From Candidatus Zixiibacteriota bacterium (GTDB taxonomy: Bacteria; Zixibacteria; MSB-5A5; SM1-73), in assembly GCA_049694315.1 (NCBI GenBank), contig JBAVQU010000061.1, positions 38,796 to 102,795 of the forward strand: 64,000 nt of DNA, read 5' to 3'. Of the stretch, positions 4,775-63,202 are shown in pieces. How positions within the stretch are numbered: the stretch's first letter is position 1; every line of letters starts with the position of its first letter. A program made the translations under genes and the position numbers. Below the pieces are notes generated by a model that made no database searches, was not told where the DNA came from, and worked only from the letters and a program-made list of their open reading frames with translations.

Positions 4775-4793
4775 GTAACTACCTCCCTCATGG

Positions 4794-7493
4794 TTAGAAG
4801 ATAAACTCAATCCCCCAGCGGACCGTTCGGGGGACGTCGTAGTTTCCCGGGTCCTTGGCCAAAAGGCGATGATAGCGGTTCACGTCCTCAGCCGTCAACG
4901 GTCCATCTCCGTCAGGATCGGCGGTCAGTTCATAATGATAGCCGTCATCATCTGGCTTTCCGGTGTTGGAATAGACGTGCAGCACGTTTCTTCGGTCGAA
5001 GAGGTTTTCCACTTCGGTGAAGAGCGAAAAGTGCGCATCTTGTGATTTGAACAGGTACAAGTCCTTGTTGAACTTCAAATCCACCTGATAGGTAGCAGGC
5101 ATCCTGCCCTCATTCAAAGCTCCCAAGCGGTGTCCTTGATCGTCCGTCTTGGTGTAAGGCATGCCGCTCCCATACTTGGTCAGCACATCCAGTCCCCATG
5201 CTCCGGGCAGGGTCAGGCCCGCCAGCTTTCGTCCCCAGTCCCTGGGAACCCGGTAGTCTAAGTCTACCGTCAGAGTGTGGCGTTGGTCGAAGTCCAGAGG
5301 ATATTCCCTCACCGGCCAAACCGGGGCACTGGTGCCTTGGGTGAAGTAGTCGTAGTAACCCTCATAGGCCGAGGAGGCATTGCCTTTTGCTATCATGTAT
5401 GAGTAGTTGATCGTGCCGGAGAGGTTGCTGTGGTTGGGTCTTCGGGTGAGGATAACGTCCAATCCCTTTACCGTCCCGTAATCGGCATTGGTGAACTGGG
5501 TATAGGAGCCTCCGGCATAGACCACCTCGCGGGTGGAGGCCAGGTTGTTCAGGTCTTTGTAATAGGTGGTGACCTTCATGGTGATGTCATCGCTCAAGGC
5601 ATGGTTCACGCCTAGCTCGTAGGCTACACTCTTTTCCGCCTTCATGTCCGGGTTTCCCAGAAGAGGAAAACCGGTGGACAGGTCGGCCTGAAGATTGGTG
5701 AACATGTCCTGATAGGGCGGAACCTGGAAATAGTAGCCATAGCTGAAATGTATCACCGTCCGGTCGGAGATGGGATGGGAGACGCCCAGACGCGGGCTTA
5801 GCTGAGTTTTTGCCCTGGTGTGAACCATTCGATCCTTGGTCACCGGATTGCTCCAGTAATCGATGTCTGCGTTCACGTAGTCCAAACGAAGACCTGCGTT
5901 CACGATTATGTCCTTCAGCTCAAGTTTATCCTGCAGATACACGGCGCCGTAATCGGGATTGACCTGGTACTTTTCTCCGTAAGGCTGGGCATTGAAAAAC
6001 TGTTTGTCGTCCCATCGCAATTGATTGGCCCGGTACTCTCCTCCAAGTTTGACCTGGTTATGCTTGTCCATCTGGCTCATCACGTCGAACCCCAGACTGG
6101 TGTAACTAGTGCTCTGATAATGATAGGCCGGATAGAAATCGGGAGCAGCGGTGAAACCGGTGTAAAAATACTGCTCCGCCGGGTTATAGTTGTCGTCATC
6201 AATTGTGCCGATGTATACTCCGTTGGAGTCTTCCTGATACCCGGGCCATTGATTCCAATAGAGGTTGAAGAGATGCTCTGGAGCCTGCTTAGTCTCGGTA
6301 TGGAAATGGTTAACCTTTATGGAGTAGAAGGTATGGTTGGATGAGGGACAGGTGAGTTTCGCCCCCAAACTGTACGACTGATTGCGAACTTTTCCCAATC
6401 CGTTCAAATTGAAATCATAGGAGATGTTGTTGACGTCTCTGTGCACATATCTCAACAGGTCCCTTTCGTAGTAATTGCCGTTCAATACCAGCTTGAGGTT
6501 GCCGGCAGGTTGTAGGTTTATCTTTCCCGTTCCGGTGGAGATGTCTTTCCGGTTATGCGGAAGATAATCGTCATTCCAGATCTTCTCTCCGGAGAAGAAA
6601 AAGGTGGCCTTGTCGGTCTGCTTGAGGGTCAAGGGACCGCCCAAGTTGACAACCAGGGAGTTGTTGTCGTTTCTCTGGAGTCTCCCAAATTCGCCGGTGT
6701 TCACCTGGTAGGTGCGAGCCAATCCGTCGTAAGCCTTGATTTTTCCGGAAAAGACCGGACCTCCTTCCCGGGTGATCGCGTTGACCACGCCGGAGAGGGC
6801 CTCGCCGTACTCCGCCGTGAAACCTCCGGTACTGACGTCCAACTCCTCAAGGGCATCGGGGGAAACTCTGGTCCCCGGCAGCCCCACCAGCTGATCCTGA
6901 ATGCAAATGTCGTCCAAGAAATAGCTCACCGTGGCCTCACGTCCCCCGCGAACGTGGAGGTAGCCACGATCGTCTACCACCGTACCCGCCAGGTTGGATA
7001 TGACCGGCTGTATTCCGACCGAATTGGGAAGGTTGTCCAGCTGTTCCCTGATCACCATGTCGGTGGAGGAAGTCAGGTCCTTCTGGATCAGTGGACGGGA
7101 AGCTATCACCGTCACCCCTTTTTTCAGTTCAATCGGGGCCGATTTCAACTGAAAATCAAGGGGAGTGGTGAGATCCAGAAGCACGGTCACCTGAGTCTGG
7201 GTGACTGTCTGGTAGCCGATCAGCGAAGTCTCAACGGTATAGGTCCCCACCGGAACGTTCAGAAAAAAGTACTCCCCGTCCTCATCCGCAGAGCTTCCGA
7301 TACTAGTGCCTCTGATCATTATCGTCGCACCGGGCAACGGCTCCTTGGTCTCCGCATCTCGAATCACCCCGGCGATCTTTCCAGCCGTGCCCGCCAAGGT
7401 GACCTGATGAAAAATCAAGATAAAAAGACAGGCCAGCAAAACTGCTCTTAGGCCCAACCTGATCGTCCCCTTAGGATATGTCTTCGTGGTCAC
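4794..7493 (-). CDS. SusC/RagA-like TonB-dependent outer-membrane transporter with an N-terminal carboxypeptidase-regulatory-like domain, plug and 22-strand barrel
   Basis: The N-terminus 'GKIAGVIRDAETKEPLPGATIMIRGTSIGSSADEDGEYFFLNVPVGTYTVETSLIGYQ' is a CarbopepD_reg-like domain. It is followed by a TonB-box/plug region and ends '...RWGIEFIF' with a terminal aromatic. It starts on GTG with an AAGGAGG SD. It sits 19 nt upstream of cargo 1. Confidence 0.8.
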   Translation of the reverse strand: MTTKTYPKGTIRLGLRAVLLACLFILIFHQVTLAGTAGKIAGVIRDAETKEPLPGATIMIRGTSIGSSADEDGEYFFLNVPVGTYTVETSLIGYQTVTQTQVTVLLDLTTPLDFQLKSAPIELKKGVTVIASRPLIQKDLTSSTDMVIREQLDNLPNSVGIQPVISNLAGTVVDDRGYLHVRGGREATVSYFLDDICIQDQLVGLPGTRVSPDALEELDVSTGGFTAEYGEALSGVVNAITREGGPVFSGKIKAYDGLARTYQVNTGEFGRLQRNDNNSLVVNLGGPLTLKQTDKATFFFSGEKIWNDDYLPHNRKDISTGTGKINLQPAGNLKLVLNGNYYERDLLRYVHRDVNNISYDFNLNGLGKVRNQSYSLGAKLTCPSSNHTFYSIKVNHFHTETKQAPEHLFNLYWNQWPGYQEDSNGVYIGTIDDDNYNPAEQYFYTGFTAAPDFYPAYHYQSTSYTSLGFDVMSQMDKHNQVKLGGEYRANQLRWDDKQFFNAQPYGEKYQVNPDYGAVYLQDKLELKDIIVNAGLRLDYVNADIDYWSNPVTKDRMVHTRAKTQLSPRLGVSHPISDRTVIHFSYGYYFQVPPYQDMFTNLQADLSTGFPLLGNPDMKAEKSVAYELGVNHALSDDITMKVTTYYKDLNNLASTREVVYAGGSYTQFTNADYGTVKGLDVILTRRPNHSNLSGTINYSYMIAKGNASSAYEGYYDYFTQGTSAPVWPVREYPLDFDQRHTLTVDLDYRVPRDWGRKLAGLTLPGAWGLDVLTKYGSGMPYTKTDDQGHRLGALNEGRMPATYQVDLKFNKDLYLFKSQDAHFSLFTEVENLFDRRNVLHVYSNTGKPDDDGYHYELTADPDGDGPLTAEDVNRYHRLLAKDPGNYDVPRTVRWGIEFIF

Positions 7494-9395: not shown

Positions 9396-9400
9396 TCAGC

Positions 9401-9769: not shown

Positions 9770-9831
9770 CGACTCCCCTCAGGCATTTTTCGAAAAGAAC
9801 AATAACTATGGTCTTCCGTCACCGCGTTTCT

Positions 9832-49132: not shown

Positions 49133-50098
49133 CTAAAATGCAACCTCCAGTGAGATACAATGCACGTCGCCCAGGTCCGACTTGTAGGGAATATAGGCAT
49201 AGTCGATTCCGTACTTTTTGAACTTTATCCCCATTCCGAATGAAAGGTCTTTCTCATCGTAGCCGAACTGATAACCCAACCGCAGAGCCAGCGTCCGATA
49301 AGCGTCATACTCCAGGCCCAGATGCACTTTCGCGTTATCGTCTCTGGGCTTAACCAAATCCAAGCCCAAGGTCAGATCGCTTTGCCAGGCTTTCTTTTCC
49401 TCAAACCAGCTCACTCCGGCCTTGTATTGGGTGGGAAGCGAATACCACTCTTTCTCAAATCTCATTTTGGATCCCAAATTCAAAATAGCCGCTCCTACCG
49501 TCAGGCCTCTTAATGCCGATTGCCCCGCCTCAGCAAACGGAGAATAGATGCTCCCTACGTCGAAGGCCCATCCGTTGGATGACGAGATGTCTATCTTTTC
49601 GTACAGCCATTTGGCCGAGACTCCTGCGGCCAATTTCTTGGAAAGTGACCGGGCATAAGAAAGATACCCCTCCACGTCGTGAGCATCGAACAGGGCGACA
49701 GGTTCGACGGTAGGTACGTCACCCCGTTTTTCAATATCGGGAACTCGGCCCACAGATAGGCCAAGCCCAAAAGCACTTTTACCGGTGGCCATGGCCAAGG
49801 AAAAGTGCTCAGCGGTTATGTCCTGGAGCCATTGAGTGTGGGTGAAACTTGCCTCTGTCCCTCCCACCGAAGAGAGCGCTGCCGGATTCCAGAATGGCTC
49901 ACCCGCTCCCGCCGACTGGGCGGTATAAGCTTCCCCCATGCCCATAGCTCTTGCCCCGGCTCCGAGCTTAAGAAAGCTCAAAAGAGAAGTCCCGCTTTCA
50001 CCATTCTTGGCGCATACCGGTGAAGCCAGGAGCGCACCCAGGAAAACTACGATGACCACAGACGATATGGCCTTTCTCAATTCTGCTCCTTCGGTCAT
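49133..50098 (-). CDS. FadL/PorV-like outer-membrane beta-barrel protein (paralog P2)
   Basis: It has a signal peptide and the N-terminal motif 'GAGARAMGMGEAYTAQSAGAGEPFWNPAAL'. It ends '...ISLEVAF'. Confidence 0.6.
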   Translation of the reverse strand: MTEGAELRKAISSVVIVVFLGALLASPVCAKNGESGTSLLSFLKLGAGARAMGMGEAYTAQSAGAGEPFWNPAALSSVGGTEASFTHTQWLQDITAEHFSLAMATGKSAFGLGLSVGRVPDIEKRGDVPTVEPVALFDAHDVEGYLSYARSLSKKLAAGVSAKWLYEKIDISSSNGWAFDVGSIYSPFAEAGQSALRGLTVGAAILNLGSKMRFEKEWYSLPTQYKAGVSWFEEKKAWQSDLTLGLDLVKPRDDNAKVHLGLEYDAYRTLALRLGYQFGYDEKDLSFGMGIKFKKYGIDYAYIPYKSDLGDVHCISLEVAF

Positions 50099-50294
50099 TT
50101 CCTCAAGGATGGGTTAGGTCTCCACATCGTGTCGCCGACGTTATGATGGACGACCTCGACACCTCGTTCCTTCGTAGACTTAAGCTATCGAAACGAGCGC
50201 TGTCTCGAAAAAGTGCTTCAGTAGAAATTGTTTTCGGTTCTTTTGACCATCCACTTTATACGCCTGGCTTCCTTTTGCCAGTGCAGCGACCTTC

Positions 50295-51233
50295 TCAGAA
50301 CTCAAACTGTAGGGAGATCAAGTGGTCCGGGTCATCCTCCACCCGACTGGCGACAAAAGCATAGTCAAAACCCAGAACGGTCGAGCGAAGCCTATGCCTT
50401 AGTCCCAAACCCAGGGTCAGCGAACCTTTGTCATATCCGATTCTCCCGGCAACGTCTTGGAGTGCCCAGCCTTCCATCCCCAGATGAATCTTCGCTTTTT
50501 GTTTCTCGCTTTTGTCGATCTCCGAGGAGAGGAGTATCCTGTCCTTGAGCAGAAGATAAGAGGCACCGAGCCGTAGGTTTACCGGGAAGTTCTCCTTCAC
50601 CGAGGAACCCAGAAGATCAAACTGCTTCCAATACTCGCCCGACGTCCACGAAAACTTCATTCCCACATTCTCCACTGCCAGCCCCAGGCGCAGCTTAGGA
50701 ATCGGTCTTCCCATCACCGATGCCCCGAACCCGAGACCATAGGCCCTGATGTTGGCCAGATTGTACTGAATGTATTCCATCCCCAATCCTACCGAAAGCT
50801 GTTCCAGAATCTTCCGCCCGTAGAATAACTGGACCGCGTTCTGGTAGTTCGAGATCTCTTCGGTAACGTAACCATCGTTGTCTCTTCCCATCACGTCCCC
50901 CACCCCGGCATTGATCCATGCCAGTGCGATGGTCGCCTCGTCGCGAATCGGTTGATTGTAGATGGCGTAGCTTAGCCTTCGGTCCAGCGTCATCTTTCGG
51001 TAGAAGACGCCGAAACTCTTCTTGGTGATCTGCACCATGCCGGCTGGATTGAAGAATCCGCCGGTGGCGTCGTCCGCCACCCCTACAAAAGCTCCTCCCA
51101 TTCCCAAAGCCCTGGCTCCCACCCCCGGCTGCAGAAATGCATCGGCATAGCCTCCATCTCCGGTTTCAGCCAGAGCGGTGGAGGAAAACACAGCTAAGAC
51201 CACAAGCATTCGGATAGTAAGCATCTTGAGCAT
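50295..51233 (-). CDS. FadL/PorV-like outer-membrane beta-barrel protein (paralog P3)
   Basis: It carries the motif 'GVGARALGMGGAFVGVADDATGGFFNPAGM' and ends '...ISLQFEF'. The start was placed at the third ATG, which lies 6 nt after an AAGGAG SD. It is 38 nt downstream of the BNR protein gene. Confidence 0.6.
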   Translation of the reverse strand: MLKMLTIRMLVVLAVFSSTALAETGDGGYADAFLQPGVGARALGMGGAFVGVADDATGGFFNPAGMVQITKKSFGVFYRKMTLDRRLSYAIYNQPIRDEATIALAWINAGVGDVMGRDNDGYVTEEISNYQNAVQLFYGRKILEQLSVGLGMEYIQYNLANIRAYGLGFGASVMGRPIPKLRLGLAVENVGMKFSWTSGEYWKQFDLLGSSVKENFPVNLRLGASYLLLKDRILLSSEIDKSEKQKAKIHLGMEGWALQDVAGRIGYDKGSLTLGLGLRHRLRSTVLGFDYAFVASRVEDDPDHLISLQFEF

Positions 51234-51277
51234 TTGCATCTCCTTGTTTACCGCCTACTCCTCTGATGCCGCCAAAT

Positions 51278-53779
51278 CTACTTCAGAACGACCACCTTCC
51301 CCCACTCTACCTGGCCTCCCGGGGCTTCCATCTTGAAGAAATAGACTCCATTTGCGACCATGTTTCCTTTTTCGTTCTTTCCATCCCAGGCTTCATCATA
51401 TTCTGCGCCTCCGGACCGGGACTGGCCGTCTAACAAGGTTGTGACCAAATTCATGGCGAAATCGTATATTTTTATGCTGACCGGTCCATCCTGTCTGGGC
51501 CGATAGTGAATTCTGGTCACCTGTCCCCCTGCTACCACGGGAGAGAAAGGGGAAGGATAGGCGTAAGCGGTCTCCGATCCCTTCGATCCGATGGGGGCGG
51601 CCACACGGGTGACCTCCCACGAGGCGCCTTCATCCGCGCTCTTGACCAGACCCTCAGAGTTTCCCGCCCACACTTCACCTCCGATTATGGCCACCGAAGA
51701 GAATTCGGAGCTGTAAATTTTGTCTCCGGTGGGTGCGCTGTCTTGCATGTAATTGAAGACTCCCCAGCTACTTCCTCCATTGTAAGACCTCTTAAGTCCG
51801 GAGCCGGTAGCCGCCCAGACCACGGAGTCGTCAAAGGCAAAATTCCAAACCTCGTCCCCCAAAAGCGTCGTGCTCCAGCTGTCCCCGTCGTCGGTGCTGA
51901 AGCTGGCGCCATAATTACCGGAGTAAGTGGGCTGCGTAGCGGCCCAGATGACCTTTTTCCCGTTGTATTTTTGTATACCCAAGCCGACCACCCAATCTCC
52001 GGTCGTGCCGTTGACATAGGAATTGTAATTGAGCACGGTATCGGAGACGTCGCGATAATTGTATATGAATTTGTAAATTCCTGCCGCAGTTCCCGCCCAG
52101 ATGGCTTTCTTGAAGGAGGGAGCCAGCTTGGTCACCTTCCAGGTTTTGCCGTCATCGCTGGACTTGGCCAATCCATCTTCTGATCCGACCAATAGCGTGA
52201 TGGTTGAAGTGTCTGGCACCACACAGACCGAGGTGAAGTAAGAGGGAATGATAAGCTCTCCCGACGTGGAGTCAATGATTTCGAAGCTGGACCAGGATCC
52301 TCCTCCATCGGTCGATTTCTTCAAACCTTCGTGGGTAGCCACCCATACGGTGGAATCCGAAAAGGCAAAATCACGCGTCTGGATGTCGCTCAAATAAGTG
52401 TGCCAGGTTTGACCTTCGTCCGTGCTTTCATAATTCAGCGGGCTGGAAAGCACGAAGCCGCCCACCCAGACAACACTGTGGCCCGCCAAAGGCTGAACCG
52501 CCACCCGGACCACCTCGAAGGGTTCCACCGTTTCCTCATAGAGATACCGAATGACGGTATCGCCGGAATCGGTGCCGGTGTAAACGAACTTGTATAAACC
52601 GTCCTTCGTTCCCGCCCAGATAACCTTGGGATATGTCGTCGTCGGGTCGACGGCCAGGCTCGTGAAAATATCTTTATCCTCAAGTTGCCCCTGGTTGAAT
52701 CTTCTTTCGGCTGATGAATCTACAAAAACGCTATCCCAGGTTTTCCCCCGATCAGTGCTGCGAATTAAGCCTCCCTTTCCGCAAGCCGCCCATATGACGG
52801 TGTCTACCAAGGCCATGTCCAATGCGAACTCATCCAAGGAACCTGCCTGCCCTTGGGCTGGTCGGGAGGTGTCCCAGGTGGCACCATAGTTGGTGGTATA
52901 ATTGAAATCCGTTCCGGTCAGCGAAGGCAGAAGCGGCAGAGGGTGAGTTTCTTCCAGCTTGTATGACCCCGTCCAGAAGAACGAGCTATCGCCTGCCAGG
53001 CAAAAGATCCCGTTGGAGTTCAGTCCACTCGAAGTATCGAATGGGAAAAAGCTCTGTCCCGCATCTGCGCTGGTAAATAGACCATTCTCCGTTGCCACCC
53101 AAATCAATTTGCCATCATAAGCTATGTCGTTGACCGAGTTCTTTAGCCTTTTCTCCACCGGACACATGGTGTCAACGGCTACCGAAAAATAGCGGTCGTT
53201 CAAATAGAGATACTGTTCCTGCTCAAAGTCCAACCGGGAAAGCGAATCGACAAAAACGTTCTCCCAGTTCTGCCCGCCGTCCCGTGAACGAATCAGCCCC
53301 CCGTACCAGCAGGCCGCCCAAACTGTAGTATCGTCCAGGGCGATATCGTAAACCACCTTCCCCGCGAAATCCGTCTGCGTCGGAATGAACGAACCCCAGT
53401 TCTGTCCCAGATCACTGGTTTGGTTAAAGCCCTTCCCGTAAGGGATCACTTCCCCTTTGACCAGCTTGGTGTAGGATGCCGACAACCACAAGGTTCTTCC
53501 CGAGGCGGCCAATGCAGAGATATCGTTGGAGTTCAGACCAGTCTGTTGATTGTAAGTCACCCAGCTTGCGCCCCGGTCGGTGGTTTTGGATAATCCGTTG
53601 CCTGTCCCCACCCAGATGACGGTGGTGTCTCCCAACGTCATAAAGACTATGTCTCCGACGCTGTTGCTGGCAAATCCCGGAGATGGTGCATCCAAGCTGA
53701 GGCTCATCCCCTCCCAGGATTCGGCGGGAAAAAGGACTACGGTGAATACCAGGATCATCAGGAGCAGACTTCGTGTCAT
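51278..53779 (-). CDS. BNR/Asp-box repeat (sialidase/sortilin/Ycf48-like beta-propeller) secreted protein with a T9SS type-A C-terminal sorting domain
   Basis: It has at least nine 'S/T-x-D-x-G-x-T/S-W' Asp-box repeats, for example 'TDRGASWV', 'DGGQNWE', 'TDRGKTWD' and 'TDEGQTWH'. The CTD reads 'VSIKIYDFAMNLVTTLLDG...WDGKNEKGNMVANGVYFFKMEAPGGQVEWGKVVVLK'. An AGGAGG SD precedes the ATG. Confidence 0.75.
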   Translation of the reverse strand: MTRSLLLMILVFTVVLFPAESWEGMSLSLDAPSPGFASNSVGDIVFMTLGDTTVIWVGTGNGLSKTTDRGASWVTYNQQTGLNSNDISALAASGRTLWLSASYTKLVKGEVIPYGKGFNQTSDLGQNWGSFIPTQTDFAGKVVYDIALDDTTVWAACWYGGLIRSRDGGQNWENVFVDSLSRLDFEQEQYLYLNDRYFSVAVDTMCPVEKRLKNSVNDIAYDGKLIWVATENGLFTSADAGQSFFPFDTSSGLNSNGIFCLAGDSSFFWTGSYKLEETHPLPLLPSLTGTDFNYTTNYGATWDTSRPAQGQAGSLDEFALDMALVDTVIWAACGKGGLIRSTDRGKTWDSVFVDSSAERRFNQGQLEDKDIFTSLAVDPTTTYPKVIWAGTKDGLYKFVYTGTDSGDTVIRYLYEETVEPFEVVRVAVQPLAGHSVVWVGGFVLSSPLNYESTDEGQTWHTYLSDIQTRDFAFSDSTVWVATHEGLKKSTDGGGSWSSFEIIDSTSGELIIPSYFTSVCVVPDTSTITLLVGSEDGLAKSSDDGKTWKVTKLAPSFKKAIWAGTAAGIYKFIYNYRDVSDTVLNYNSYVNGTTGDWVVGLGIQKYNGKKVIWAATQPTYSGNYGASFSTDDGDSWSTTLLGDEVWNFAFDDSVVWAATGSGLKRSYNGGSSWGVFNYMQDSAPTGDKIYSSEFSSVAIIGGEVWAGNSEGLVKSADEGASWEVTRVAAPIGSKGSETAYAYPSPFSPVVAGGQVTRIHYRPRQDGPVSIKIYDFAMNLVTTLLDGQSRSGGAEYDEAWDGKNEKGNMVANGVYFFKMEAPGGQVEWGKVVVLK

Positions 53780-55121: not shown

Positions 55122-55164
55122 GAGAAATTGAAAAACAAAACGCCAGCCCCGTTGAGAACGGGGC
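55122..55164 (-). terminator. Rho-independent terminator after PorV-like P4, bidirectional in position between convergent genes
   Basis: The 8-bp stem GCCCCGTT/AACGGGGC has a GAG loop at 55146-55164. On the minus strand it is followed by 'TGGCGTTTTGTTTTTCAATTT'. Confidence 0.6.
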
Positions 55165-55194
55165 CGGCGCCTCTTTCGATGCCTTTGTCTGGGC

Positions 55195-56202
55195 TTAGAA
55201 ATTTAGCACCAGACCGAACCGGTGAGCGTTCTGCAGTCTGCCCAAATCTGCCCAAGCGTAGTTGATCCCCACGCTTCCGAATCCGGAAATCTCGTAGTCA
55301 TAGCCCGCTCCGAGCGCTAGACCTTCTTCATCGGTTCTAAACTTATATCCGGCTCTGACCGACAACCGATTTCGCCAGCTGTACTCCAGTCCCGCGCTGG
55401 CCTGCTGGCCGCGGTCCCGGGTATTGTATCCGTCTACCGTCGCCATAAGCTTGCTCTGCTCGCTAAACTCAAAGTCGTAGGCCACTCCCAGACGAAAGCT
55501 CAAGGGCAGAGGTTGAGATTGGGTTTCCTTTTTCACCAGAATCGGCGCGGTGCTGGAATTGCTGTCCGCATCAAATGTCGTCTCCAGCTCACTTCCGTCA
55601 AACTTGGTGTCCGTTCCGAAGTTTCTGGTGGACATGGCTATCCTCAGGGTCCGATATCCGGTGTAGTACAGGGTGCCGACGTCAAAAGCGAGAGCATCGG
55701 CAGAGAGCTGGGAGATTTTCTCTCGGATGTACTTGGCAGTCACCCCGAAAGAGAATCGATCGGTGAGCTGATAGGCGTTGGTGATCCCTACCACCCAGCT
55801 GTCCGCCCCGAACTTCTCTCCAGTTCCGTCCGGCTGGTCCAGAGTAGTCACTTCCATGTCGCCCATGGTCAAAACGGCCACGTGCACCCCCACGTTTCCG
55901 AACCCCTGAAGCGGAGTCTCATAGGCTAAGTAGTTGTATTTGATGTCCGAAATCCAATCGGTATAGCTGAACGCCAGGCTGCGCTTGTCCAGGTTGGCTA
56001 TTCCCGCCGGGTTGTAGTACAGCGCCATCGCTCCCTTGGTGACCGCCACGCTTGCCCCCCCCAAGCCCACTACCCGGGCGTCTACGTCCAACTTGAGGAA
56101 CTGAGCCCCGGACGTCCCCACATTGTCGAATTGGGCCGGCCACGCTTCACCGGCCAGGCAGACAAACTGGATCAGCACCAGGAACGTAAGGAATTTTTTC
56201 AT
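55195..56202 (-). CDS. FadL/PorV-like outer-membrane beta-barrel protein (paralog P4), downstream partner of T9SS cargo 2
   Basis: It carries 'VGTSGAQFLKLDVDARVVGLGGASVAVTKGAMALYYNPAGI' and ends 'HRFGLVLNF'. It is the closest paralog of P1. A GGAGGAGG SD precedes it and it lies 30 nt after cargo 2. Confidence 0.6.
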   Translation of the reverse strand: MKKFLTFLVLIQFVCLAGEAWPAQFDNVGTSGAQFLKLDVDARVVGLGGASVAVTKGAMALYYNPAGIANLDKRSLAFSYTDWISDIKYNYLAYETPLQGFGNVGVHVAVLTMGDMEVTTLDQPDGTGEKFGADSWVVGITNAYQLTDRFSFGVTAKYIREKISQLSADALAFDVGTLYYTGYRTLRIAMSTRNFGTDTKFDGSELETTFDADSNSSTAPILVKKETQSQPLPLSFRLGVAYDFEFSEQSKLMATVDGYNTRDRGQQASAGLEYSWRNRLSVRAGYKFRTDEEGLALGAGYDYEISGFGSVGINYAWADLGRLQNAHRFGLVLNF

Positions 56203-56232
56203 CGCAACTTACCTCCTCCAAGGTTAAATCCG

Positions 56233-59200
56233 TTATCGCACCACCGCGAATTTCCCGATCTTTTCTCCGTATGGCGAATCCACATGGTAGATGTAAACGC
56301 CGGATGCGATCTTCTGGTTGTTTTTGGTCAAAAGATCCCAGTTCTCGTTGCCGTCCAGATCCGCGCTGTTATGTTCCAAGGTGCGAAGAAGATCACCGGA
56401 CAGAGTATATATCCGGAGGGTGCATCTGTTTGGAAGGTGGGTGAAGGCGATCCGGGAATAATCCCCACTGGGCTCCCAGTTGTTACGAACGATGTAAGGA
56501 TTCGGCACCACCTTTATTCGATTCAAATCCACCTGGTTCGCTTCTATATGCTTCTCGTTAGTCTTGATCGTGAAGACATCCTCGTGCGTATTGGGTTTCC
56601 AGGTTATCAGCAGGGCATTATCTCCCTTGGCCCAGACCGGATCTACTTCATTGAAAGCAGCGCGGTAGTCCCAATCGTGTCGCGACATCGGTTTTGAGGT
56701 GTCGAGGCTCCAATAGGCGGCGTTGCCGGGATCATGATCGGGGTTGGAGAAGAAATCCTCCGCATAAGTGTTGCCGCTGGTGTTTTTGTCCAGAAGAATG
56801 ATGTAATCGTCGGTATGGAATCTCCCGTCTCCATAGAAGTCATACATCAAAGGCCAGATCCTGACGTCATCGCTGACGTCCTCGACGTTCGGACCCAGAT
56901 CCCAGACTTCAAAGGGGACGCTTATGTGGGTGGTATCTGCCCGGAAATGGCCCCAGGGAGTATTACCCTGAACGTCCCGATAGAACCCTTGAGCGGTGGT
57001 ATCCCCTGGACCAGCCACGAATTTGATTCGAAAATTCCTGAAGTCACCGTTTGCCAGAGCGTTCCTCCCGCCGATATAGACCTCGTTGAAGAACCAAGAC
57101 AGCCCATGAGAGTTCAATTTGGTCAGATCGGCGTTGAACCCCAATTCGGCCGGTCCCATCACCTTAAACACCATTCCGTCTACCACTGGGTAGTCGTTGT
57201 TCCCAGTCTGGTTGGCCATGTTATCCAACAACACTGTATCTGCGGTCACGTCCTTGAGATACCAGAGCAGTGGAATGTCTCCTTCATGGAACCCCACCTC
57301 ATACACATGTCCGGTGACCGCATCCGGCTGCACAGTCGTCACCTGCACCGTGCCATCGCTACTTCCAGGCGCGTGCGTCACATTGTATGCGCTTCCTTGG
57401 ACCAGTCCCGAGGCGTTAGAGCGGGGAGTGACCGCAACCGCGCTTATCCCGTTCTGGAGGCTACGGGGCGAAGCAAAGGGCTGGAAGTCGTAGGCCACCA
57501 CATCGTAGTAATAGGTCATTCCGTTGATCAGTCCGGTATCTACGTAAGAGTAGCCCAGTTGACTATTCGCACCTTCGGGCTCTTCCAGGTGCCCGGTGAT
57601 TTCAAATACGAGGTTATCGGTCGGCACGTACGAGGGATTGTCCCCCTTGAAATGGATCAGCATTCCGCCGAATAACAGATAACAGTCGTCGAAATAGTTG
57701 TCGTAAGTCCCATCCGCTATTCTTTCGGCGGTGCTTCGGCTCACGAAGAGAGTATCCCCTTCCAGAGAAAACACCTCAAAAAGATAAGGTGGCTCGCCGG
57801 GGGGTAACCAGTGATTCTCTTTTTTTGAAGGAGGAATGCCTACTCCGAGGGTCAGGTCAGTGACGGAAAAGGAGGTATCGGCTTTCACCTGCACCAGGTA
57901 CTGGTGGCCGGTAAAGAGTGACGTGGAGCCTTCCACCAGAATGTAGTTCTCCGTGTTCAACTCATCATAGGTGACCGCTCCGGCAAACGTGGGGCCGGAG
58001 AGTTGCTGGACATCGACGTGTCGCGGCGTCACACTGCTCTTGTCCCAGGAGGAGAGAAGCTCGAAGCTTCCGGGCAGGCCGGTGGTGCTTCGGTAAAGCC
58101 GGTAGCCTTCGAAGTCCATCTCTTTGTAGTTGGGATCATACAAGGGATTAGTGGGATCGCTGGTGAATTTGAAGTATGGATCTTTCGAGGACTCCGACGA
58201 GTTATCCCAGCCGATCAAAACCTTCTTGTCGTCGGGAACCACTGAGATGTTGGGCTTGTCCGGAGGACGGGGAAGGATGAATCCGATATCGTAAATCGAC
58301 TGGGCAATGTCGGCCACCCTGGGAAGCTGAACTCTGTCCGGAGCCATCATCACTGCCACTACAACCCTGACGGTGTCACCAACCACCGTGTCGATGCTGG
58401 CTATTTTCAGGGTGTCCGTGGATGAATTCCAGCTGTATACTGTGTCGACCACTGTGTCTCCCACTGCTGCCAAGAGGAATGGCCCGGTGTTCTGGAAGAA
58501 TCTTTGGTCATTCGGACTGGTTCCGCTTCCCAAATCGAAAGGAGCATAACGCTGGTCACCCGACGTCGGGTAGTTGTGTCCGGCCATGATCAGGAACTTC
58601 TCCGGCTCGTTCGCGGGATCACCCGACTCCAGATCCGAAACCTTGAAGGAGGTTAACCCCAGGGAATTTCCCCTTCTAACGTCTTTCACATAGACCCCAT
58701 TGCCGTTTACGTTCAGGGAATCGTCGCTGATCTGGTCATCACCGTTCAAATCCACGTCGTAAGTGGCCAGAGGGCTTTCCAGAAACTTGTAGGCTAAATA
58801 GCCCGGTATCCTGCCGAATCCCTGTTCGGCGTTGTCGCTGTCGTAGGCATACCCCAAATTCCGGGTCTTGTCAATGCCGACCAGATCGTCTCTGGCATTG
58901 GGCCCGATATCGGGATCGCACATGACCGAGACAAAGCAGTTCCTTATGGGTCTTTTGTCCTCTCTGATGTTTACGATCTGGTAGATGAAGAAGTGAATGG
59001 TCTTGTTGTTGTCGTAGTTCCAGGAGTGGGTGCGTTGTATCACCTTGACTCCCAAGCCGAATTTGGCAATGTCTTTTCCGTCTCCGGCGTTGGAGTTTAT
59101 GCCGGTGTCCCACCTTTCTGGGTCCTGATCGTCATACTCCGTATAGCTGTCTTCAATCCCAACTAATATCGGATTGTCGGCATTGTCCCGTAAGGGCCAG

Positions 59201-59718
59201 AAATTGGCGGCACTATAGTCCTCGGGGTGGTCACTGATGAATATGTCCGTGACTCCGGCGAATTCTCCGGCTCCGCTGCTGGGTTCATATCCCACCGCCA
59301 CCCGGGGGTCGGAGAGCGTTCGATAAAGAACCTCATCCCTGGTTGACCCCGAATTGTTGAAACTCAAGGTCTGTAGGCTGGGATTGTTCACGGTTCCCCC
59401 CACCCATAAGCCGGCGCCATAGATGTAAAACTCGTTGGTACCTTTGGGCCACTCTCCCCCTGCCGATCCCACGTCCACAAACTGCCCAAAAACAGAGTAG
59501 TTGGTCATGGGGATTCGGAAATCGTTGATGTCCAGACCATGCCTGATGTATCTGGTTTTGTTACTAAAGTGTTCTGTCTGGGCCATCTTTGCCAGCCGGG
59601 GGGAACCCTTCTGGCCCGCGGTTCGAGCTTGGTTTTCGGTGGGCAGCAGTGCAAATAGAAGGAGGAACAAGAAGACAACCCCGCCCGAGATTGCGCGTTT
59701 CTTAACGAATTTCTCCAT
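56233..59718 (-). CDS. Large secreted protein of unknown function with an FN3-like segment and a C-terminal T9SS type-A sorting domain (cargo 2, paralog of cargo 1)
   Basis: The start was moved to ATG 59718, which lies 7 nt after an AAGGAG SD and gives the signal peptide 'MEKFVKKRAISGGVVFLFLLLFALLP'. The CTD 'RIKVVPNPY...FTHLPNRCTLRIYTLSGDLL...GVYIYHVDSPYGEKIGKFAVVR' is near-identical in pattern to cargo 1. The N-region motif 'GGEWPKGT' is shared with cargo 1. Confidence 0.7.
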   Translation of the reverse strand: MEKFVKKRAISGGVVFLFLLLFALLPTENQARTAGQKGSPRLAKMAQTEHFSNKTRYIRHGLDINDFRIPMTNYSVFGQFVDVGSAGGEWPKGTNEFYIYGAGLWVGGTVNNPSLQTLSFNNSGSTRDEVLYRTLSDPRVAVGYEPSSGAGEFAGVTDIFISDHPEDYSAANFWPLRDNADNPILVGIEDSYTEYDDQDPERWDTGINSNAGDGKDIAKFGLGVKVIQRTHSWNYDNNKTIHFFIYQIVNIREDKRPIRNCFVSVMCDPDIGPNARDDLVGIDKTRNLGYAYDSDNAEQGFGRIPGYLAYKFLESPLATYDVDLNGDDQISDDSLNVNGNGVYVKDVRRGNSLGLTSFKVSDLESGDPANEPEKFLIMAGHNYPTSGDQRYAPFDLGSGTSPNDQRFFQNTGPFLLAAVGDTVVDTVYSWNSSTDTLKIASIDTVVGDTVRVVVAVMMAPDRVQLPRVADIAQSIYDIGFILPRPPDKPNISVVPDDKKVLIGWDNSSESSKDPYFKFTSDPTNPLYDPNYKEMDFEGYRLYRSTTGLPGSFELLSSWDKSSVTPRHVDVQQLSGPTFAGAVTYDELNTENYILVEGSTSLFTGHQYLVQVKADTSFSVTDLTLGVGIPPSKKENHWLPPGEPPYLFEVFSLEGDTLFVSRSTAERIADGTYDNYFDDCYLLFGGMLIHFKGDNPSYVPTDNLVFEITGHLEEPEGANSQLGYSYVDTGLINGMTYYYDVVAYDFQPFASPRSLQNGISAVAVTPRSNASGLVQGSAYNVTHAPGSSDGTVQVTTVQPDAVTGHVYEVGFHEGDIPLLWYLKDVTADTVLLDNMANQTGNNDYPVVDGMVFKVMGPAELGFNADLTKLNSHGLSWFFNEVYIGGRNALANGDFRNFRIKFVAGPGDTTAQGFYRDVQGNTPWGHFRADTTHISVPFEVWDLGPNVEDVSDDVRIWPLMYDFYGDGRFHTDDYIILLDKNTSGNTYAEDFFSNPDHDPGNAAYWSLDTSKPMSRHDWDYRAAFNEVDPVWAKGDNALLITWKPNTHEDVFTIKTNEKHIEANQVDLNRIKVVPNPYIVRNNWEPSGDYSRIAFTHLPNRCTLRIYTLSGDLLRTLEHNSADLDGNENWDLLTKNNQKIASGVYIYHVDSPYGEKIGKFAVVR

Positions 59719-59783
59719 GTCAAATCTCCTTTTCAATGATTCTTTGCTCTCACGTCAATGCTGGCTTCATGGTTTGATCACCC

Positions 59784-62678
59784 TCAGAATGCGATGTAGA
59801 AGCCGACACTGATCTGGCGAGGAGGTCCGTAGTTCATGGGGTCATTGACATACACGTCGTACGCTTTGCTGTATGCCGCGTATTGCTCCTCCGCACTGAT
59901 GACTCCATCTCCGTTCGTGTCCTTCACCTGGATCCAATTCCAGTACTGGTTGCTCACGTTTTCTCCCGGAGCTCCTATGGCCCCCGGATTTAGCCGATAG
60001 CCATCTTCGTTGGGAAGTCCGGTGGCCGGATAGACGTCCAGCACGTTGATCCGGTCAAAGAGATTCATTATCTGAACGAAGAAGTTGATTTCCCTTCCGC
60101 TGATCTTGAAACTCTTGTCTATGGTTAAGTCCGTGTCGTAGGTCCAGGGCTTGCGATACTCATTCGTGGTTCCGACCCGGTTGCCTCGGTAATCCCTTTT
60201 GGTGTAAGGAAGACCGCTTGACGCCTCGGAGACCACACTTATCCCGAAGTCCCGTAGAGCAGTGACTTCAAAATCAGTGGGAAACCTCCAATCGGCCTGC
60301 AGCTCAAAGCTGTGCCTCCGGTCAAAGTCTAACGGTTTCACGCTCGACGGGAAAACCCTCGGCAGTCCGGTTACCGGATCGGTGGCATCGCGGGAGTGGT
60401 ACTCATACTGGTCGTCTTCGTCCGAGTTGGTCCCTTCTGCATACTGAAGCACGTAGCTCAAATTGAAGGAAAGGTATTTTCGGGGCCGCTGGGACAAGGT
60501 CACCTCCATCCCCTTCACGTTGGCATAGTCTAAGTTCTTGAGCACGTCGTAGGGAGTGGGGGAGATGAAGATCCTTTGGTACTGCACCATGTTGTAAACG
60601 TCCTTGTAATAAGCCGCGACGTTGAACTTCATGTCCCGGCTTATGGCCCGAGTCAAGCCCAGCTCATACTGTATGTTCCTGCTCGGCTTCAATCCTGGGT
60701 TCCCCACTACCTGATTTCCCCTCTGCAGATTGGGATTCAGAGAGAGGTATAGGTCGTGGAAGGTTGGCTGTTGCGTGAAATGCCCGTAATTGAAAAAGAC
60801 GGTCATCTTGTCGGAAACCGGATGAGAAATTCCCAACCTGGGGCTGAAGGTTACGTCAGTGCTCACGGCTGAGTCTCTGGCTTCAGGGTGCAGATCCGGT
60901 CTGTTCGGGACATCGGTATCGCTGGGCCAGACTTTCGCGTCCTTGCTCAGGTAATCGACTCGGCCCCCGACGTTCACCACCAAGCCCTGAAATTCGATCT
61001 TGTCCTGAAGGTAAACGTCCCCCCCCACCGGGTGATAGGTGTAGACGTCTATGAAAGTCAAGGGATCCCAGGGAAGGCTGTTGTAATGTCTTTTGATGGT
61101 GTATTGGTTCAACTCTACCCCAGACTTGATCTGGTTGTGGAAGTTCACCTGGCTGGTGGCGTCCACTTTGTAGGTGTAAACGTCACTTCTCCTCGACTCA
61201 AACAGCCTGGTGTCGCCGTAAGAGTAGAACAGGCCGTTCACCGCCAGAGGGTAGTTCTGGTACTCCACCGCCTTCCGATATCTTTTCCAGTCGGTGGTAT
61301 CGGGCGACGGGTCGGCAAACTTGTAGTCACTCCACCAGTGTCCGTCCCAGACTTCATCCTTATGCTGGGAGATGAAGGCTTGCGCCAGATCCGGATCATC
61401 CGGATACATTTCGTTGGCGGTCCGTTCCAGGAAAGCTTGATCCAAGCGTCTGCCCGTGGTGAAGGCGTTGCTGAAGAACCCAAATTTGGCCTCATAGAAG
61501 GTGTTCTTGGAGACCGAGTGAGTCAAGGCCAGATAAGCCTGCCTGGCCTTCTCCAAGGTGCAGTCGTAACCCTCCAAATCGTAAAGATAAGTGTGATTAT
61601 ACCTCTCATATTGCCGCCGATTGTCAAAGCCTCCGGCGCGCAGGGTCATGGAAGGGGTAAGCTTAAAAGTAAGCTTACCTTGCGTGCGGTAGGTCTGCTG
61701 TTGGTGGTGAGGCAGCTCGTGCAGTCGAGGTCCCCAGTCATCGGTCAGATACAGGTTGCCGCTCAAATAGTAGCTCAGCTTCTCCTGTGTGCCCGGCACC
61801 GGTCCTGCCAGGCTCAGGAAGTGCTCATTGGTTCCGAGGTCATACTTATTTTCTAAAAGCTGGTCCGTGGAGTACTGATATCTTCCTGACAACTGGGCTC
61901 CACCCTCCTGGGTCACGTAGTTGACAATGCCGGACATGGCATTGCCGTACTCAGCATTGAATCCGCTGGTGATCAGCTGCGCCTCGGCAATGGTAAAATG
62001 ACTCAGATTGGTGGCCTGACCCGCCAGGATAGGGTCGGTGATGGACAGCCCGTCCACCATGTACACTACCTCTTCGGGGCGCCCCCCTCTCAAAGTTATC
62101 CCCGGATTGGCAGTGTCGGTCACCCGATTGCCTTCATTTCCAATTGCCGTGCCCACATTTCCCTGATTGATCGGTCCGCCGATGGGGTCGAAGACCACGC
62201 CCGGTGTCCGTTGAATGATTCCGTCCGAGTTGATAACCGGACGATGAATTATGTCTGCGGAGGTAACTATATGGGCGGTGGATGTTAGGTCCGGCTCGAA
62301 TATCGGTCTTTCCGCCGTCACCGTAACCCCTTTCATTTCCAAGGCCTGAGCGGACAAAGTGAAATCTACGGTGGTGGTTAGATCCAAAAGCACTTGAACG
62401 TTTTCCATCTCCACCGGAGTGTAGCCGATCAGGGTGGTTTTGAGCTTGTATGCTCCGGGAGGGACATTCAAAATGAAGTACTCTCCTTTTTCATTTGCTG
62501 CCGCTCCCATAGTAGTTCCCTCAATCACCACTGCCACCCCCGGGAGCCGCTCACCGGTATCCTTGTCCTTGACTATTCCTGCTATCTTTCCGGTGGTTCC
62601 AGCCTGCACCCAGGAACAGAGAACAAGGAACAGAATGCTCCAGGTGAGCACGAGCCTGAATACTTGTTTGCTTTTCAA
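59784..62678 (-). CDS. SusC/RagA-like TonB-dependent outer-membrane transporter (paralog of 4794-7493)
   Basis: The N-terminal 'GKIAGIVKDKDTGERLPGVAVVIEGTTMGAAANEKGEYFILNVPPGAYKLKTTLIGY' aligns residue-for-residue with TBDT 1. It ends 'VGFYIAF'. It starts on TTG 5 nt after a GGAGGAG SD. Confidence 0.8.
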   Translation of the reverse strand: MKSKQVFRLVLTWSILFLVLCSWVQAGTTGKIAGIVKDKDTGERLPGVAVVIEGTTMGAAANEKGEYFILNVPPGAYKLKTTLIGYTPVEMENVQVLLDLTTTVDFTLSAQALEMKGVTVTAERPIFEPDLTSTAHIVTSADIIHRPVINSDGIIQRTPGVVFDPIGGPINQGNVGTAIGNEGNRVTDTANPGITLRGGRPEEVVYMVDGLSITDPILAGQATNLSHFTIAEAQLITSGFNAEYGNAMSGIVNYVTQEGGAQLSGRYQYSTDQLLENKYDLGTNEHFLSLAGPVPGTQEKLSYYLSGNLYLTDDWGPRLHELPHHQQQTYRTQGKLTFKLTPSMTLRAGGFDNRRQYERYNHTYLYDLEGYDCTLEKARQAYLALTHSVSKNTFYEAKFGFFSNAFTTGRRLDQAFLERTANEMYPDDPDLAQAFISQHKDEVWDGHWWSDYKFADPSPDTTDWKRYRKAVEYQNYPLAVNGLFYSYGDTRLFESRRSDVYTYKVDATSQVNFHNQIKSGVELNQYTIKRHYNSLPWDPLTFIDVYTYHPVGGDVYLQDKIEFQGLVVNVGGRVDYLSKDAKVWPSDTDVPNRPDLHPEARDSAVSTDVTFSPRLGISHPVSDKMTVFFNYGHFTQQPTFHDLYLSLNPNLQRGNQVVGNPGLKPSRNIQYELGLTRAISRDMKFNVAAYYKDVYNMVQYQRIFISPTPYDVLKNLDYANVKGMEVTLSQRPRKYLSFNLSYVLQYAEGTNSDEDDQYEYHSRDATDPVTGLPRVFPSSVKPLDFDRRHSFELQADWRFPTDFEVTALRDFGISVVSEASSGLPYTKRDYRGNRVGTTNEYRKPWTYDTDLTIDKSFKISGREINFFVQIMNLFDRINVLDVYPATGLPNEDGYRLNPGAIGAPGENVSNQYWNWIQVKDTNGDGVISAEEQYAAYSKAYDVYVNDPMNYGPPRQISVGFYIAF

Positions 62679-63202
62679 TTCATCTCCTCCTGTTGAAAAG
62701 TTGACCTTTCGAGGTTAGCTGAAACGTTATCTACTTTGGCCATTCACCTCCTTTGCGGTTTGCCGGCTCGTCGCCAAGCTTGCCATAGATAAAAAAGGTT
62801 ATGTTTGGTTCAGTCTCTTTAGGATGAGTTCTGCACGTTGAACCGGTATTGCTCAGACCCGATCTCTTCCATCCCATGTTCTGTGGATTTCGCTACCGCC
62901 GGACTGCCGGATAACCGCGAGAGAATGCTGATCCACAACATCGAAGAAGGGTCTTAGTGCTCAGCAAATGCACAATCTGCAGGAATAGTTTCGACCTCCT
63001 GTCGTCACTTAGAACCGTCGAGGGGACTACTGATGGGTGCTACTAAGCTTTTGCCGGTTTACATGTTATATGATCGACAGGCGGGCCGAAAAGTTTAGAG
63101 CGCAAAGGTAGAGAAAACGTGTGAACCAACCTTTTCTCAAATTGCCGGAAATCGGCATTTTGAGCGGCTTATTCCAGGGGTCACACTAAGGAGTCTAATC
63201 CG

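Follow-up and report, generated by a model that had tools for sequence, protein, structure and literature searches.

Results

Gene content of the locus

The window, the whole 64-kb stretch of DNA analysed here, comes from a Zixibacteria MAG and carries two colinear three-gene cassettes, cassette 2 at 55195-62678 (three minus-strand ORFs) and cassette 1 at 853-7493, together with a third set of genes of similar logic. The first-pass annotation had proposed that a second transporter/cargo/PorV-like cassette exists at this end of the window, and both the ORFs and BLASTP comparison with cassette 1 (E 3e-23 to 2e-139) bear this out. The features are as follows.

59784..62678, minus strand: TonB-dependent outer-membrane transporter of cassette 2, 964 aa (Pfam, motif conservation)
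~62319-62585, minus strand: CarboxypepD_reg N-terminal extension of this transporter
~62304-62327, minus strand: TonB-box-like VTVTA of this transporter
56233..59736, minus strand: cargo 2, predicted large secreted all-beta surface protein, 1167 aa from TTG
58279..59556 (approximate limits), minus strand: N-terminal galactose-mutarotase-like beta-supersandwich of cargo 2, containing GEWPKG
57457..58269, minus strand: FN3-like domain of cargo 2, split by an insertion (BLASTP colinearity with cargo 1)
~57637-58083, minus strand: ~150-aa insertion within the FN3-like domain, absent from most family members
56236..56529, minus strand: C-terminal domain of cargo 2, T9SS type-A-like beta-sandwich, apparently a distinct, highly conserved subclass
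55195..56202, minus strand: P4, PorV/PorQ-family 14-stranded outer-membrane barrel of cassette 2, 335 aa (NCBIfam, predicted fold)
55137..55173, minus strand: intrinsic-terminator-like hairpin, 17-bp stem and T run
4794..7493, minus strand: TonB-dependent transporter of cassette 1, 899 aa
2120..4810, minus strand: cargo 1, 896 aa from TTG, architecture as cargo 2 minus the FN3 insertion
853..1866, minus strand: P1, PorV/PorQ-family barrel of cassette 1, 337 aa (NF033709, BLASTP to P4)
49133..53779, minus strand: third set, a BNR-propeller gene followed by two PorV/PorQ-family genes
51278-53779, minus strand: BNR-propeller protein with PorZ-like C-terminal domain
50295-51239, minus strand: first PorV/PorQ-family gene after the propeller gene
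49133-50098, minus strand: second PorV/PorQ-family gene after the propeller gene

The cassette 2 transporter begins at a TTG with GGAGG 7 nt 5' of it, and cargo 2 probably starts at ATG 59718, giving 1161 aa as in NCBI's version. Transporter and cargo genes are separated by 47-65 nt and cargo and P4 genes by 30 nt, the latter as annotated previously, as is the 253-nt spacer at the equivalent position of cassette 1. The terminator-like hairpin lies 22 nt past the P4 stop codon; a coding-strand scan of the cargo-PorV junction gave no such site. Because the gaps are short and a strong terminator follows the third gene, cassette 2 is read as one operon. For cargo 1, whose orthologues are ~883 aa long, the internal ATG at 4774 (884 aa) is the most likely start, and the gene therefore would not overlap that of the receptor. 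The gene order of the third set recurs in loci L001 and L002, and all four PorV/PorQ-family genes of the window are located downstream of a protein with a T9SS-type C-terminal domain, two of them directly.

The transporters are predicted TonB-dependent receptors

Both transporters match PF00593 / TonB_dep_Rec_b-barrel (22-strand) at 99 bits against a cut-off of 27, and that of cassette 2 also matches CarbopepD_reg_2 (61 bits, Pfam). The plug model PF07715 scores 24.7 bits in cassette 1, above the cut-off of 23.9, and 22.9 bits, just below it, in cassette 2, where the layout runs from signal peptide through CarboxypepD_reg extension, TonB box, plug and barrel to a C-terminal Phe. The motifs (V/I)xVxAERP, HxRGGR..Y..DG and FNAEYG are conserved in 70 receptors of equivalent three-gene sets (triads). 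Together these features identify the transporters, at the level of sequence, as plugged TonB-dependent receptors with a TonB box, a class known mainly for import; for this reason the cassette transporter is more likely to be an importer than an exporter of the large protein encoded beside it. Neither reaches the SusC/RagA subfamily model TIGR04056, which scores 48-52 bits against a cut-off of 368 and covers the N-terminal ~125 residues only.

The large protein and its C-terminal domain

Cargo 2 is 100% identical to a Zixibacteria MAG protein and matches no Pfam family. Its hydrophobic N-terminal helix (residues 3-24, followed by NQA; read by eye from the model) is a Sec-type N-terminus without a lipobox cysteine. 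The AF2 model is all-beta (pLDDT 80.3), and the best fold matches of its supersandwich are the non-catalytic N-domains of GH15, GH94 and GH65 enzymes. The FN3-like domain holds the motif DFEGYRLYRS, which was used for the collection scan, and is interrupted at residues 551-700, where the gap fraction in a 70-sequence alignment is 0.6-0.9.

The C-terminal domain of cargo 2 gives weak matches to PorU and PorZ C-terminal domain models only, below every cut-off, and that of cargo 1 scores 18.8 bits against the type-A model TIGR04183/PF18962 (cut-off 23); NCBI nevertheless lists some cargo 1 orthologues as T9SS type A sorting domain-containing protein. Type-B models (PF13585/TIGR04131) found no match in cargo 2 and gave 17.2 bits (CHU_C) against a cut-off of 27 in cargo 1. 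In predicted-structure comparison the fold resembles the PorZ C-terminal region. The triad domains score 105-145 bits as a subclass, compared with at most 32 for 50 ordinary C-terminal-domain proteins from the same loci, and thus appear to form a separate subclass confined to triad large proteins; conservation within the triad is highest in this domain and in the barrel.

The barrel belongs to the PorV/PorQ family

P4 and P1 score 214 and 248 bits with the PorV/PorQ family model NF033709 (cut-off 90), and fall below the equivalog models for both PorV (NF033710, 92 and 125 bits, cut-off 250) and PorQ (NF033711, 114.5 and 117 bits, cut-off 220). P2 and P3, the other PorV-like genes of the window, are likewise under these equivalog cut-offs. 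PorP_SprF (PF11751) finds no match in P4 and gives 23.8 bits in P1, versus 73.8 for the PorV model. The sole PDB sequence match of P4 is PorV (6h3i_F). Its AF2 model (pLDDT 84.5) has 14 long strands, as expected of a FadL-like barrel, and is most similar to PorV 8gl6_F/6h3i_F (TM 0.71-0.73), with 8gl6_F the top match at 0.73. Orthologues of P4 share 69-86% identity, and almost every one has 335 aa.

Two cassettes, two lineages

The resemblance between the cassettes is far above chance: by pairwise BLASTP, P1 and P4 share 41% identity over their full length (E 5e-96), the receptors 31% over theirs (E 2e-139), and the cargo proteins 31% in the C-terminal ~490 aa (E 2e-53) and 22% in the N-terminal ~500 aa (E 3e-23). 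Of the window's four PorV-like genes, P1 and P4 are, as first annotated, the closest to each other (41% versus 23-29%). Two details of the earlier description need correction: the motif common to the cargo proteins is GEWPKG and not GGEWPKG (cargo 1 reads SGEWPKG), and the C-terminal domains called near-identical share 55% identity.

A recent local duplication of one cassette would suit the presence of both inside one 64-kb window, and the similarity might otherwise be a chance likeness of unrelated family members; we regard either explanation as having almost no chance of being right. Chance is out of the question at E-values of 1e-53 to 1e-139. Identity between the cassettes is 33/30/41% (receptor/large protein/barrel) compared with 37/32/38% to Cloacimonadota triads, such that the two stand as far apart as either does from triads of other phyla. 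Across Zixibacteria, moreover, separate orthologues exist for each cassette (52-97% identity for cassette 1, a range that holds for cargo 1, and 57-86% for cassette 2), and the flanking synteny of cassette 2 is kept in other Zixibacteria. Separate orthologue sets and identities no higher than those between phyla refute recent local duplication. Sequence comparison instead points to two ancient paralogous lineages of one module, which presumably differ in substrate. Of the proposed unit duplication, then, the part that stands is that the three genes diversify together; no duplication is visible in the window or genome.

Conservation and genomic context

At least 590 relatives were found in species-representative genomes, and 4,420 cluster representatives (50% identity clusters) at E<=1e-30. 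Of 84 fetched loci, 69 have receptor, large protein and PorV-like barrel in this order on one strand, the median spacing being 17 and then 12 nt; contig ends interrupt most of the others. Hosts include Ignavibacteria, Melioribacter, Calditrichia, WOR-3, Marinimicrobia, Cloacimonadota, KSB1, Bacteroidota and others. Distances among the three protein families are correlated (Mantel r 0.78-0.87), their trees have 38 of 67 bipartitions in common (~0.2 expected by chance), and each deep paralogue clade spans several phyla. Such congruence partly reflects simple linkage and shared species history; the data nonetheless support the view that the three genes stay together and diversify jointly. Gene order, the three congruent trees and the exclusive C-terminal-domain subclass make it very probable that, as had been suggested, each cargo has its own cognate PorV-like partner.

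In the isolate Melioribacter sp. OK-6-Me the triad is flanked by GH13 amylases on one side and a CBM20/48/53 protein with a T9SS tail on the other. In 12-15 loci sugar ABC transporter genes are found downstream of the triad, and in five WOR-3 loci TonB and ExbD are found upstream of it. The proximity of GH13 amylases, CBM20 proteins, sugar ABC transporters and TonB/ExbD suggests a role in nutrient uptake. No CAZyme or sugar-transporter neighbours were found beside the Zixibacteria cassettes, of which cassette 2 sits among housekeeping genes and cassette 1 adjoins sensor kinases; the suggestion of a glycan for these is borrowed from the contexts of other clades.

Discussion

The reading that we prefer, and to which we give an even chance, is that cassette 2 is one operon for outer-membrane nutrient capture and uptake, a lipoprotein-free counterpart of SusC/SusD with a dedicated PorV/PorQ-type anchor. 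The 1161-aa protein would be exported via Sec and then, by means of its C-terminal domain, through type IX secretion. This domain would be kept and docked on the PorV/PorQ-family barrel encoded by the neighbouring gene, like PorZ on PorQ and PorU on PorV, tethering the galactose-mutarotase-like (carbohydrate-binding-type) supersandwich at the cell surface, in a putative complex beside the transporter encoded upstream. There it may catch a polymer or oligomer, probably a glycan, which the transporter would import with TonB energy. Cassettes 1 and 2 would each have a co-evolved transporter, binding protein and anchor of their own.

Other readings give the same genes different roles. The barrel could be a transient carrier that collects its own cargo at the T9SS translocon and delivers it to a shared attachment complex; once there, the cargo would lose its C-terminal domain by cleavage and be either attached to lipopolysaccharide or set free, with the transporter functionally linked and no physical partner. 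PorV is described as a shuttle in the literature, the structure closest to the barrel model is that of PorV in a substrate-bound translocon (8gl6_F), and gene clustering and co-diversification are compatible with a carrier; a common attachment complex, however, gives no obvious need for one barrel per cargo, a highly conserved C-terminal domain of its own subclass suits a permanent interface better than a disposable signal, and the nearest models of that domain are the retained PorU and PorZ domains, which leaves a transient carrier unlikely. Of the rivals, this one is closest to the view of the first-pass annotation. The large protein might also be a surface enzyme, an all-beta polysaccharide lyase or hydrolase from a family not yet described, anchored by the barrel and feeding products to the transporter, since the supersandwich fold also occurs as the catalytic domain in some all-beta lyases and hydrolases (PL4, PL26, GH174). 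Its top fold matches are the non-catalytic domains named above, and it matches no CAZy-linked Pfam or NCBIfam model; we consider an enzyme rather unlikely.

It is improbable, in our judgement, that the receptor exports its neighbour in the manner of Oar while the PorV-like barrel anchors it, the triad being a self-contained secretion-and-anchoring device. The domain architecture equals that of the Oar subclass (CarboxypepD_reg extension, plug with TonB box, and barrel; PMC6434023), the receptor gene almost always sits close beside the large-protein gene, and the T9SS core genes SprA, PorKLMN and PorU are absent from the 64-kb window. Nevertheless, the large protein bears a T9SS-type C-terminal domain, ordinary C-terminal-domain proteins are plentiful in triad loci and imply a general T9SS, a folded 120-kDa multidomain beta protein suits a 22-strand barrel poorly, and the sugar ABC transporters, amylases and CBM proteins beside triads fit import. 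In the text consulted, popC is not described as adjacent to oar. The broader claim, an SprA-independent export-and-display device widespread in FCB-type phyla, in which an Oar-like transporter translocates the neighbour and the barrel holds its special C-terminal domain, is more improbable again.

If nutrient capture and uptake is the correct reading, the triad is a conserved three-part surface machine in many Bacteroidota-related phyla (Zixibacteria, Ignavibacteria, Calditrichia, Marinimicrobia, WOR-3, Cloacimonadota, KSB1), in which a T9SS-delivered binding protein on its own PorV/PorQ-type barrel replaces the SusD lipoprotein. It would join type IX secretion and TonB-dependent uptake, usually treated apart, and provide a concrete, widespread case for the proposal that cognate PorV-like barrels both protect and retain C-terminal domains. 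No Pfam or NCBIfam model covers the body of the large protein, and carbon-cycling MAGs would be better annotated where these genes are now called 'hypothetical protein' or 'long-chain fatty acid transport protein'. Presence of the family in the isolate Melioribacter sp. OK-6-Me makes the model directly testable.

Several known systems share parts of this arrangement. Oar, a TonB-dependent transporter required for PopC secretion in Myxococcus xanthus, resembles the triad receptor in domain architecture, with a PF13620 extension, plug with TonB box, and barrel (PMC6434023), whereas its substrate has neither a T9SS-type C-terminal domain nor a PorV-like partner. SprB/SprF and other type-B/PorP-SprF pairs likewise cluster a T9SS substrate gene with that of its own PorV-like barrel, whose proposed role is to anchor a substrate that keeps its C-terminal domain (PMC10202324). 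The analogy drawn earlier with SprB/SprF holds for this logic of a clustered cognate barrel and fails for family membership: the triad C-terminal domain is not type B, the barrels fit PorV models far better than PorP_SprF, and no transporter belongs to SprB/SprF.

Closer are PorU-PorV and PorZ-PorQ of Porphyromonas gingivalis, in which retained type-A-like C-terminal domains are bound to PorV-family barrels (PMC10202324). With this precedent, the earlier statement that cognate pairing is not known for type-A cargo was too strong, and the same review already proposes cognate PorV-like barrels (PMC10202324). The triad differs in that its barrels are below both the PorV and PorQ equivalog cut-offs, the partner is no sortase or propeller protein, an operon joins the pair to a TonB-dependent transporter, and the lineage here does not belong to Bacteroidota; that the triad C-terminal domain is kept is proposed by analogy. 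Compared with SusC/SusD, the triad receptor falls outside the SusC/RagA family, its partner is all-beta with a Sec signal and no lipobox where SusD is an alpha-helical lipoprotein, and anchoring would use a C-terminal domain and barrel rather than lipid. Like SusC/SusD, RagAB and BtuB-BtuG of Bacteroidota, however, the triad pairs an adjacent, co-evolving transporter carrying a CarboxypepD_reg-type extension with a putative surface-exposed substrate-binding partner, and its setting recalls SusC/SusD in the Melioribacter GH13 amylase/starch-binding locus and in the sugar ABC transporters downstream elsewhere.

A three-gene module in two divergent copies

The minus-strand stretch at 55195-62678 (cassette 2) encodes a TonB-dependent receptor, a large protein (the cargo) ending in a T9SS-type C-terminal domain, here called the tail, and a PorV-like barrel, a combination that we refer to as a triad. 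All three open reading frames were recovered where the first-pass annotation had placed them.

59784-62678, minus strand: TonB-dependent receptor, 964 aa
56233-59736, minus strand: large protein, 1167 aa (the identical NCBI protein begins 6 codons later)
55195-56202, minus strand: PorV-like barrel, 335 aa

Cassette 2 is colinear with a second copy at 853-7493 (cassette 1), and BLASTP matched all three protein pairs. The barrels align over their full length (41% identity, E 5e-96), as do the receptors of 964 and 899 aa (31%, E 2e-139); the large proteins align over the C-terminal ~490 residues (31%, E 2e-53) and the N-terminal ~500 (22%, E 3e-23). Compared all against all, the ORFs of the window include four PorV-like genes, among which the two cassette barrels are indeed mutual closest relatives. 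The C-terminal domains of the two large proteins, described in the first pass as near-identical, share 55% identity, and the N-terminal motif is common to both cargos, as reported, but reads GEWPKG rather than GGEWPKG.

Cargo 1 probably starts at an internal ATG, because its orthologues are ~883 aa long. The 253-nt spacer that separates it from its PorV-like gene (1867-2119) contains GC-rich hairpins and folds as RNA somewhat better than shuffled sequence (z -2.95); no conservation of the spacer sequence was found in the closest relatives (loci L010 and L076). Upstream of the cassette 2 receptor gene, the 1.3 kb at 62679-64000 holds no ORF >100 aa and no riboswitch or other RNA in Rfam. G+C is lower there (0.488 for 62001-64000), and in a syntenic contig (L001) an aminotransferase gene occupies the position upstream of the receptor gene.

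Receptors, large proteins and barrels of the two cassettes share 33/30/41% identity in the comparison across phyla, and the cassettes are no closer to each other than to triads of other phyla (37/32/38% for a Cloacimonadota locus, for example). The proposal that the cassette was duplicated and then diverged here was to be undercut if pairwise identities fell within background similarity, and that is where they fall; recent duplication is thus rejected, and we regard it, together with chance, as refuted. The window belongs to a Zixibacteria MAG, and each cassette has orthologues of its own in that phylum, which share 57–72% identity with cargo 2, 52–97% with cargo 1 and 69–86% with the cassette 2 barrel. 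In another Zixibacteria contig, the flanks of cassette 2 (citrate synthase, the BNR protein, the other pair of PorV-like genes and isocitrate/isopropylmalate dehydrogenase) are syntenic. The two cassettes are ancient paralogous lineages, unless one was gained by transfer. Taken alone, the presence of a second copy here is ordinary for the triad family.

Conservation and co-diversification of the triad

A profile of the large protein, scanned against one genome per species, found relatives at no fewer than 590 loci (a lower bound), of which 80 were kept. These represent, by the taxon labels of the deposited MAGs, Ignavibacteria, Melioribacter (including the RefSeq assembly Melioribacter sp. OK-6-Me), Caldithrix/Calditrichia, KSB1, WOR-3, Neomarinimicrobiota, Cloacimonadota, Eisenbacteria, Edwardsbacteria, Stahlbacteria, GN15, Chlorobiota and Bacteroidota. 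An exhaustive search by profile, at E<=1e-30, brought up 4,420 cluster representatives (clusters at 50% identity), mostly as full-length matches.

When ORFs were parsed in all fetched loci, the large-protein gene stood between a receptor gene upstream and a PorV-like gene downstream, each its immediate neighbour on the same strand, in 69 of 84 cases (median gaps 17 and 12 nt, respectively); the other 15 were mostly cut by contig ends. Variants exist: tandem triads or an extra receptor gene occur at a few loci (L005 1-9827, L049 1216-11113 and L065 110-7968). L005 has two triads in tandem, some genomes have a further receptor gene right behind a triad, and in L053 (3-5028) and L065 a receptor gene comes next after the large-protein gene, with a PorV-like gene absent.

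Matrices of pairwise distance correlate strongly among the three proteins (Mantel r 0.87, 0.80 and 0.78; p<=0.001), and 38 of 67 bipartitions are common to all three trees, built by neighbour-joining on simple distances, compared with ~0.2 under random relabelling. Several deep clades each hold more than one phylum, the same phyla reappear in different clades, and Melioribacter, Marinimicrobia and Calditrichia each have at least two triad lineages; the triad has therefore moved through evolution as one block, by inheritance, duplication or transfer. The earlier description of the three genes as a unit is thus supported as a property of the triad family, both in gene order and in congruent trees. 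Tree congruence is no proof of physical specificity, since linkage alone also yields congruent trees.

Identity of the three proteins

By Pfam and NCBIfam models, the receptors have a plug and a barrel preceded by a CarboxypepD_reg extension at the N-terminus. Conserved across 70 triad receptor homologues are a TonB-box-like (V/I)xVxAERP that directly follows the extension, the HxRGGR..Y..DG and FNAEYG motifs of the plug, and a Phe at the C-terminus. Membership of SusC/RagA was rejected (48–52 bits against a cut-off of 368).

The cassette barrels score 214 and 248 bits with NF033709, the PorV/PorQ family model (cut-off 90), and neither reaches the equivalog cut-off of PorV or of PorQ. The sole PDB sequence match of the cassette 2 barrel is Flavobacterium PorV. 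Its AF2 model (pLDDT 84.5) has 14 long strands and matches best the fold of PorV in the substrate-bound translocon (8gl6_F, TM 0.73), with FadL, TodX and BamG behind. This barrel has ~90 orthologue clusters (P0220–P0309) at 69–86% identity, nearly all of 335 aa. It is more conserved than its own large protein (69–86% versus 57–72%), which is unusual for an outer-membrane barrel.

No Pfam family matched the large protein, and no Pfam or NCBIfam model its body. Weak matches link the last ~100 residues of cargo 2 to the PorU and PorZ C-terminal domains and the tail of cargo 1 to a type-A sorting domain, and some cargo 1 orthologues carry the NCBI name 'T9SS type A sorting domain-containing protein'. 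Assignment of the cassette proteins to the type-B/SprF group was rejected.

Genomic context

Clustering of the ORFs that flank the 69 triads identified as recurrent neighbours further proteins carrying ordinary T9SS tails at 45 loci, SurA-like peptidyl-prolyl isomerases at 28, a downstream sugar-type ABC transporter (SBP_bac_1 and two permeases) at 12–15, and ExbD and TonB upstream of the triad at five WOR-3 loci. Adjoining Zixibacteria orthologues of cassette 1 are an ABC_sub_bind gene (at nine loci) and sensor kinases; the corresponding genes in the window may regulate cassette 1.

7740-12479, minus strand: ABC_sub_bind protein, HAMP histidine kinase and response-regulator/kinase hybrid, directly upstream of cassette 1

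The order of genes in Melioribacter sp. OK-6-Me (L029:1-15548) is GH13 amylase, SurA-like isomerase, receptor, large protein, PorV-like barrel, a CBM20/48/53 protein with a Por_Secre_tail, and a GH13 amylase with a Por_Secre_tail, which makes it a starch-utilisation-type locus. In it, T9SS tails take the place of lipid anchors, and the triad stands where SusC/SusD would. The M. roseus genome paper speaks of a 'sus operon' whose genes Mros0761-0759 are called 'SusC', 'SusD' and 'SusE' (PMC3534657), and these may be triad genes.

Two further genes of the window encode multidomain proteins: a 1035-aa protein (29826-32933, plus strand) has an unusual architecture, with a Peptidase_MA-like domain and TolB-type propeller repeats (PD40) joined to a barrel of the Omp85 family, and a single ORF (20616-21980, plus strand) fuses a TatD-type DNase domain with a radical SAM domain.

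A private tail, a dedicated barrel and their possible role

The most conserved stretches of the large protein are its C-terminal domain and FN3-like core (~0.5 mean pairwise identity across phyla), and among the three triad genes, conservation between orthologues is highest for the barrel. An HMM built from the last 105 residues of triad large proteins scores 105–145 bits on all 83 triad proteins and no more than 32 bits on 50 proteins from the same loci that also end in T9SS-type tails, among them the third tail-bearing protein of the window. Each of the window's four PorV/PorQ-family genes lies downstream of a tail-bearing protein, two of them directly. The two outside the cassettes follow a BNR propeller gene, in an order that recurs in other Zixibacteria (L001/L002), and this set may be a PorZ/PorQ/PorV-type attachment set.

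51278-53779, minus strand: BNR/Asp-box propeller protein with a PorZ-like C-terminal domain
50295-51239 and 49133-50098, minus strand: two PorV/PorQ-family genes

A private conserved tail beside a private conserved barrel is what a permanent interface would predict. C-terminal domains are retained in the known precedents PorZ-PorQ and PorU-PorV, and a review suggests that cognate PorV-like barrels shield such domains from cleavage (PMC10202324). The barrel could instead be a transient, cargo-specific shuttle, with cleavage later, which we consider unlikely.

We give an even chance to a nutrient-capture and uptake mechanism as a whole. Transcription of the operon would start upstream of the receptor gene and stop past the barrel gene, where cassette 2 has a strong hairpin. 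The large protein would leave via Sec and then the T9SS, a system whose range reviews give as the FCB superphylum (PMC11205867) or Bacteroidota only. Its special tail would remain bound to its own barrel, its supersandwich (the N-terminal galactose-mutarotase-like domain) would capture a polymer at the surface, and the TonB-dependent transporter would bring the product in. Observed here are the protein families, the operon layout, its conservation and co-diversification, the tail subclass, the folds and the contexts; the route of export, a retained tail, a physical complex, the substrate and the direction of transport are inferred. The same complex with an enzyme as its large protein seems to us rather improbable. 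Oar has the same domain architecture as the triad receptor and is required for PopC secretion (PMC6434023); we hold an Oar-like route, with the transporter exporting the large protein, to be quite improbable here, and the uptake reading remains the one that we prefer.

In the literature searched (on PorV with TonB-dependent receptors, on paralogues of the PorV-like kind, on the T9SS of Zixibacteria and on loci of Melioribacter), we found no description of a fixed three-gene combination with a TonB-dependent transporter, or of a private tail subclass. The parts belong to known families, namely TonB-dependent transporters, the PorV/PorQ family and T9SS-like tails, and the pairing of each substrate with its own cognate barrel is known for SprB/SprF and implied for PorZ/PorQ.
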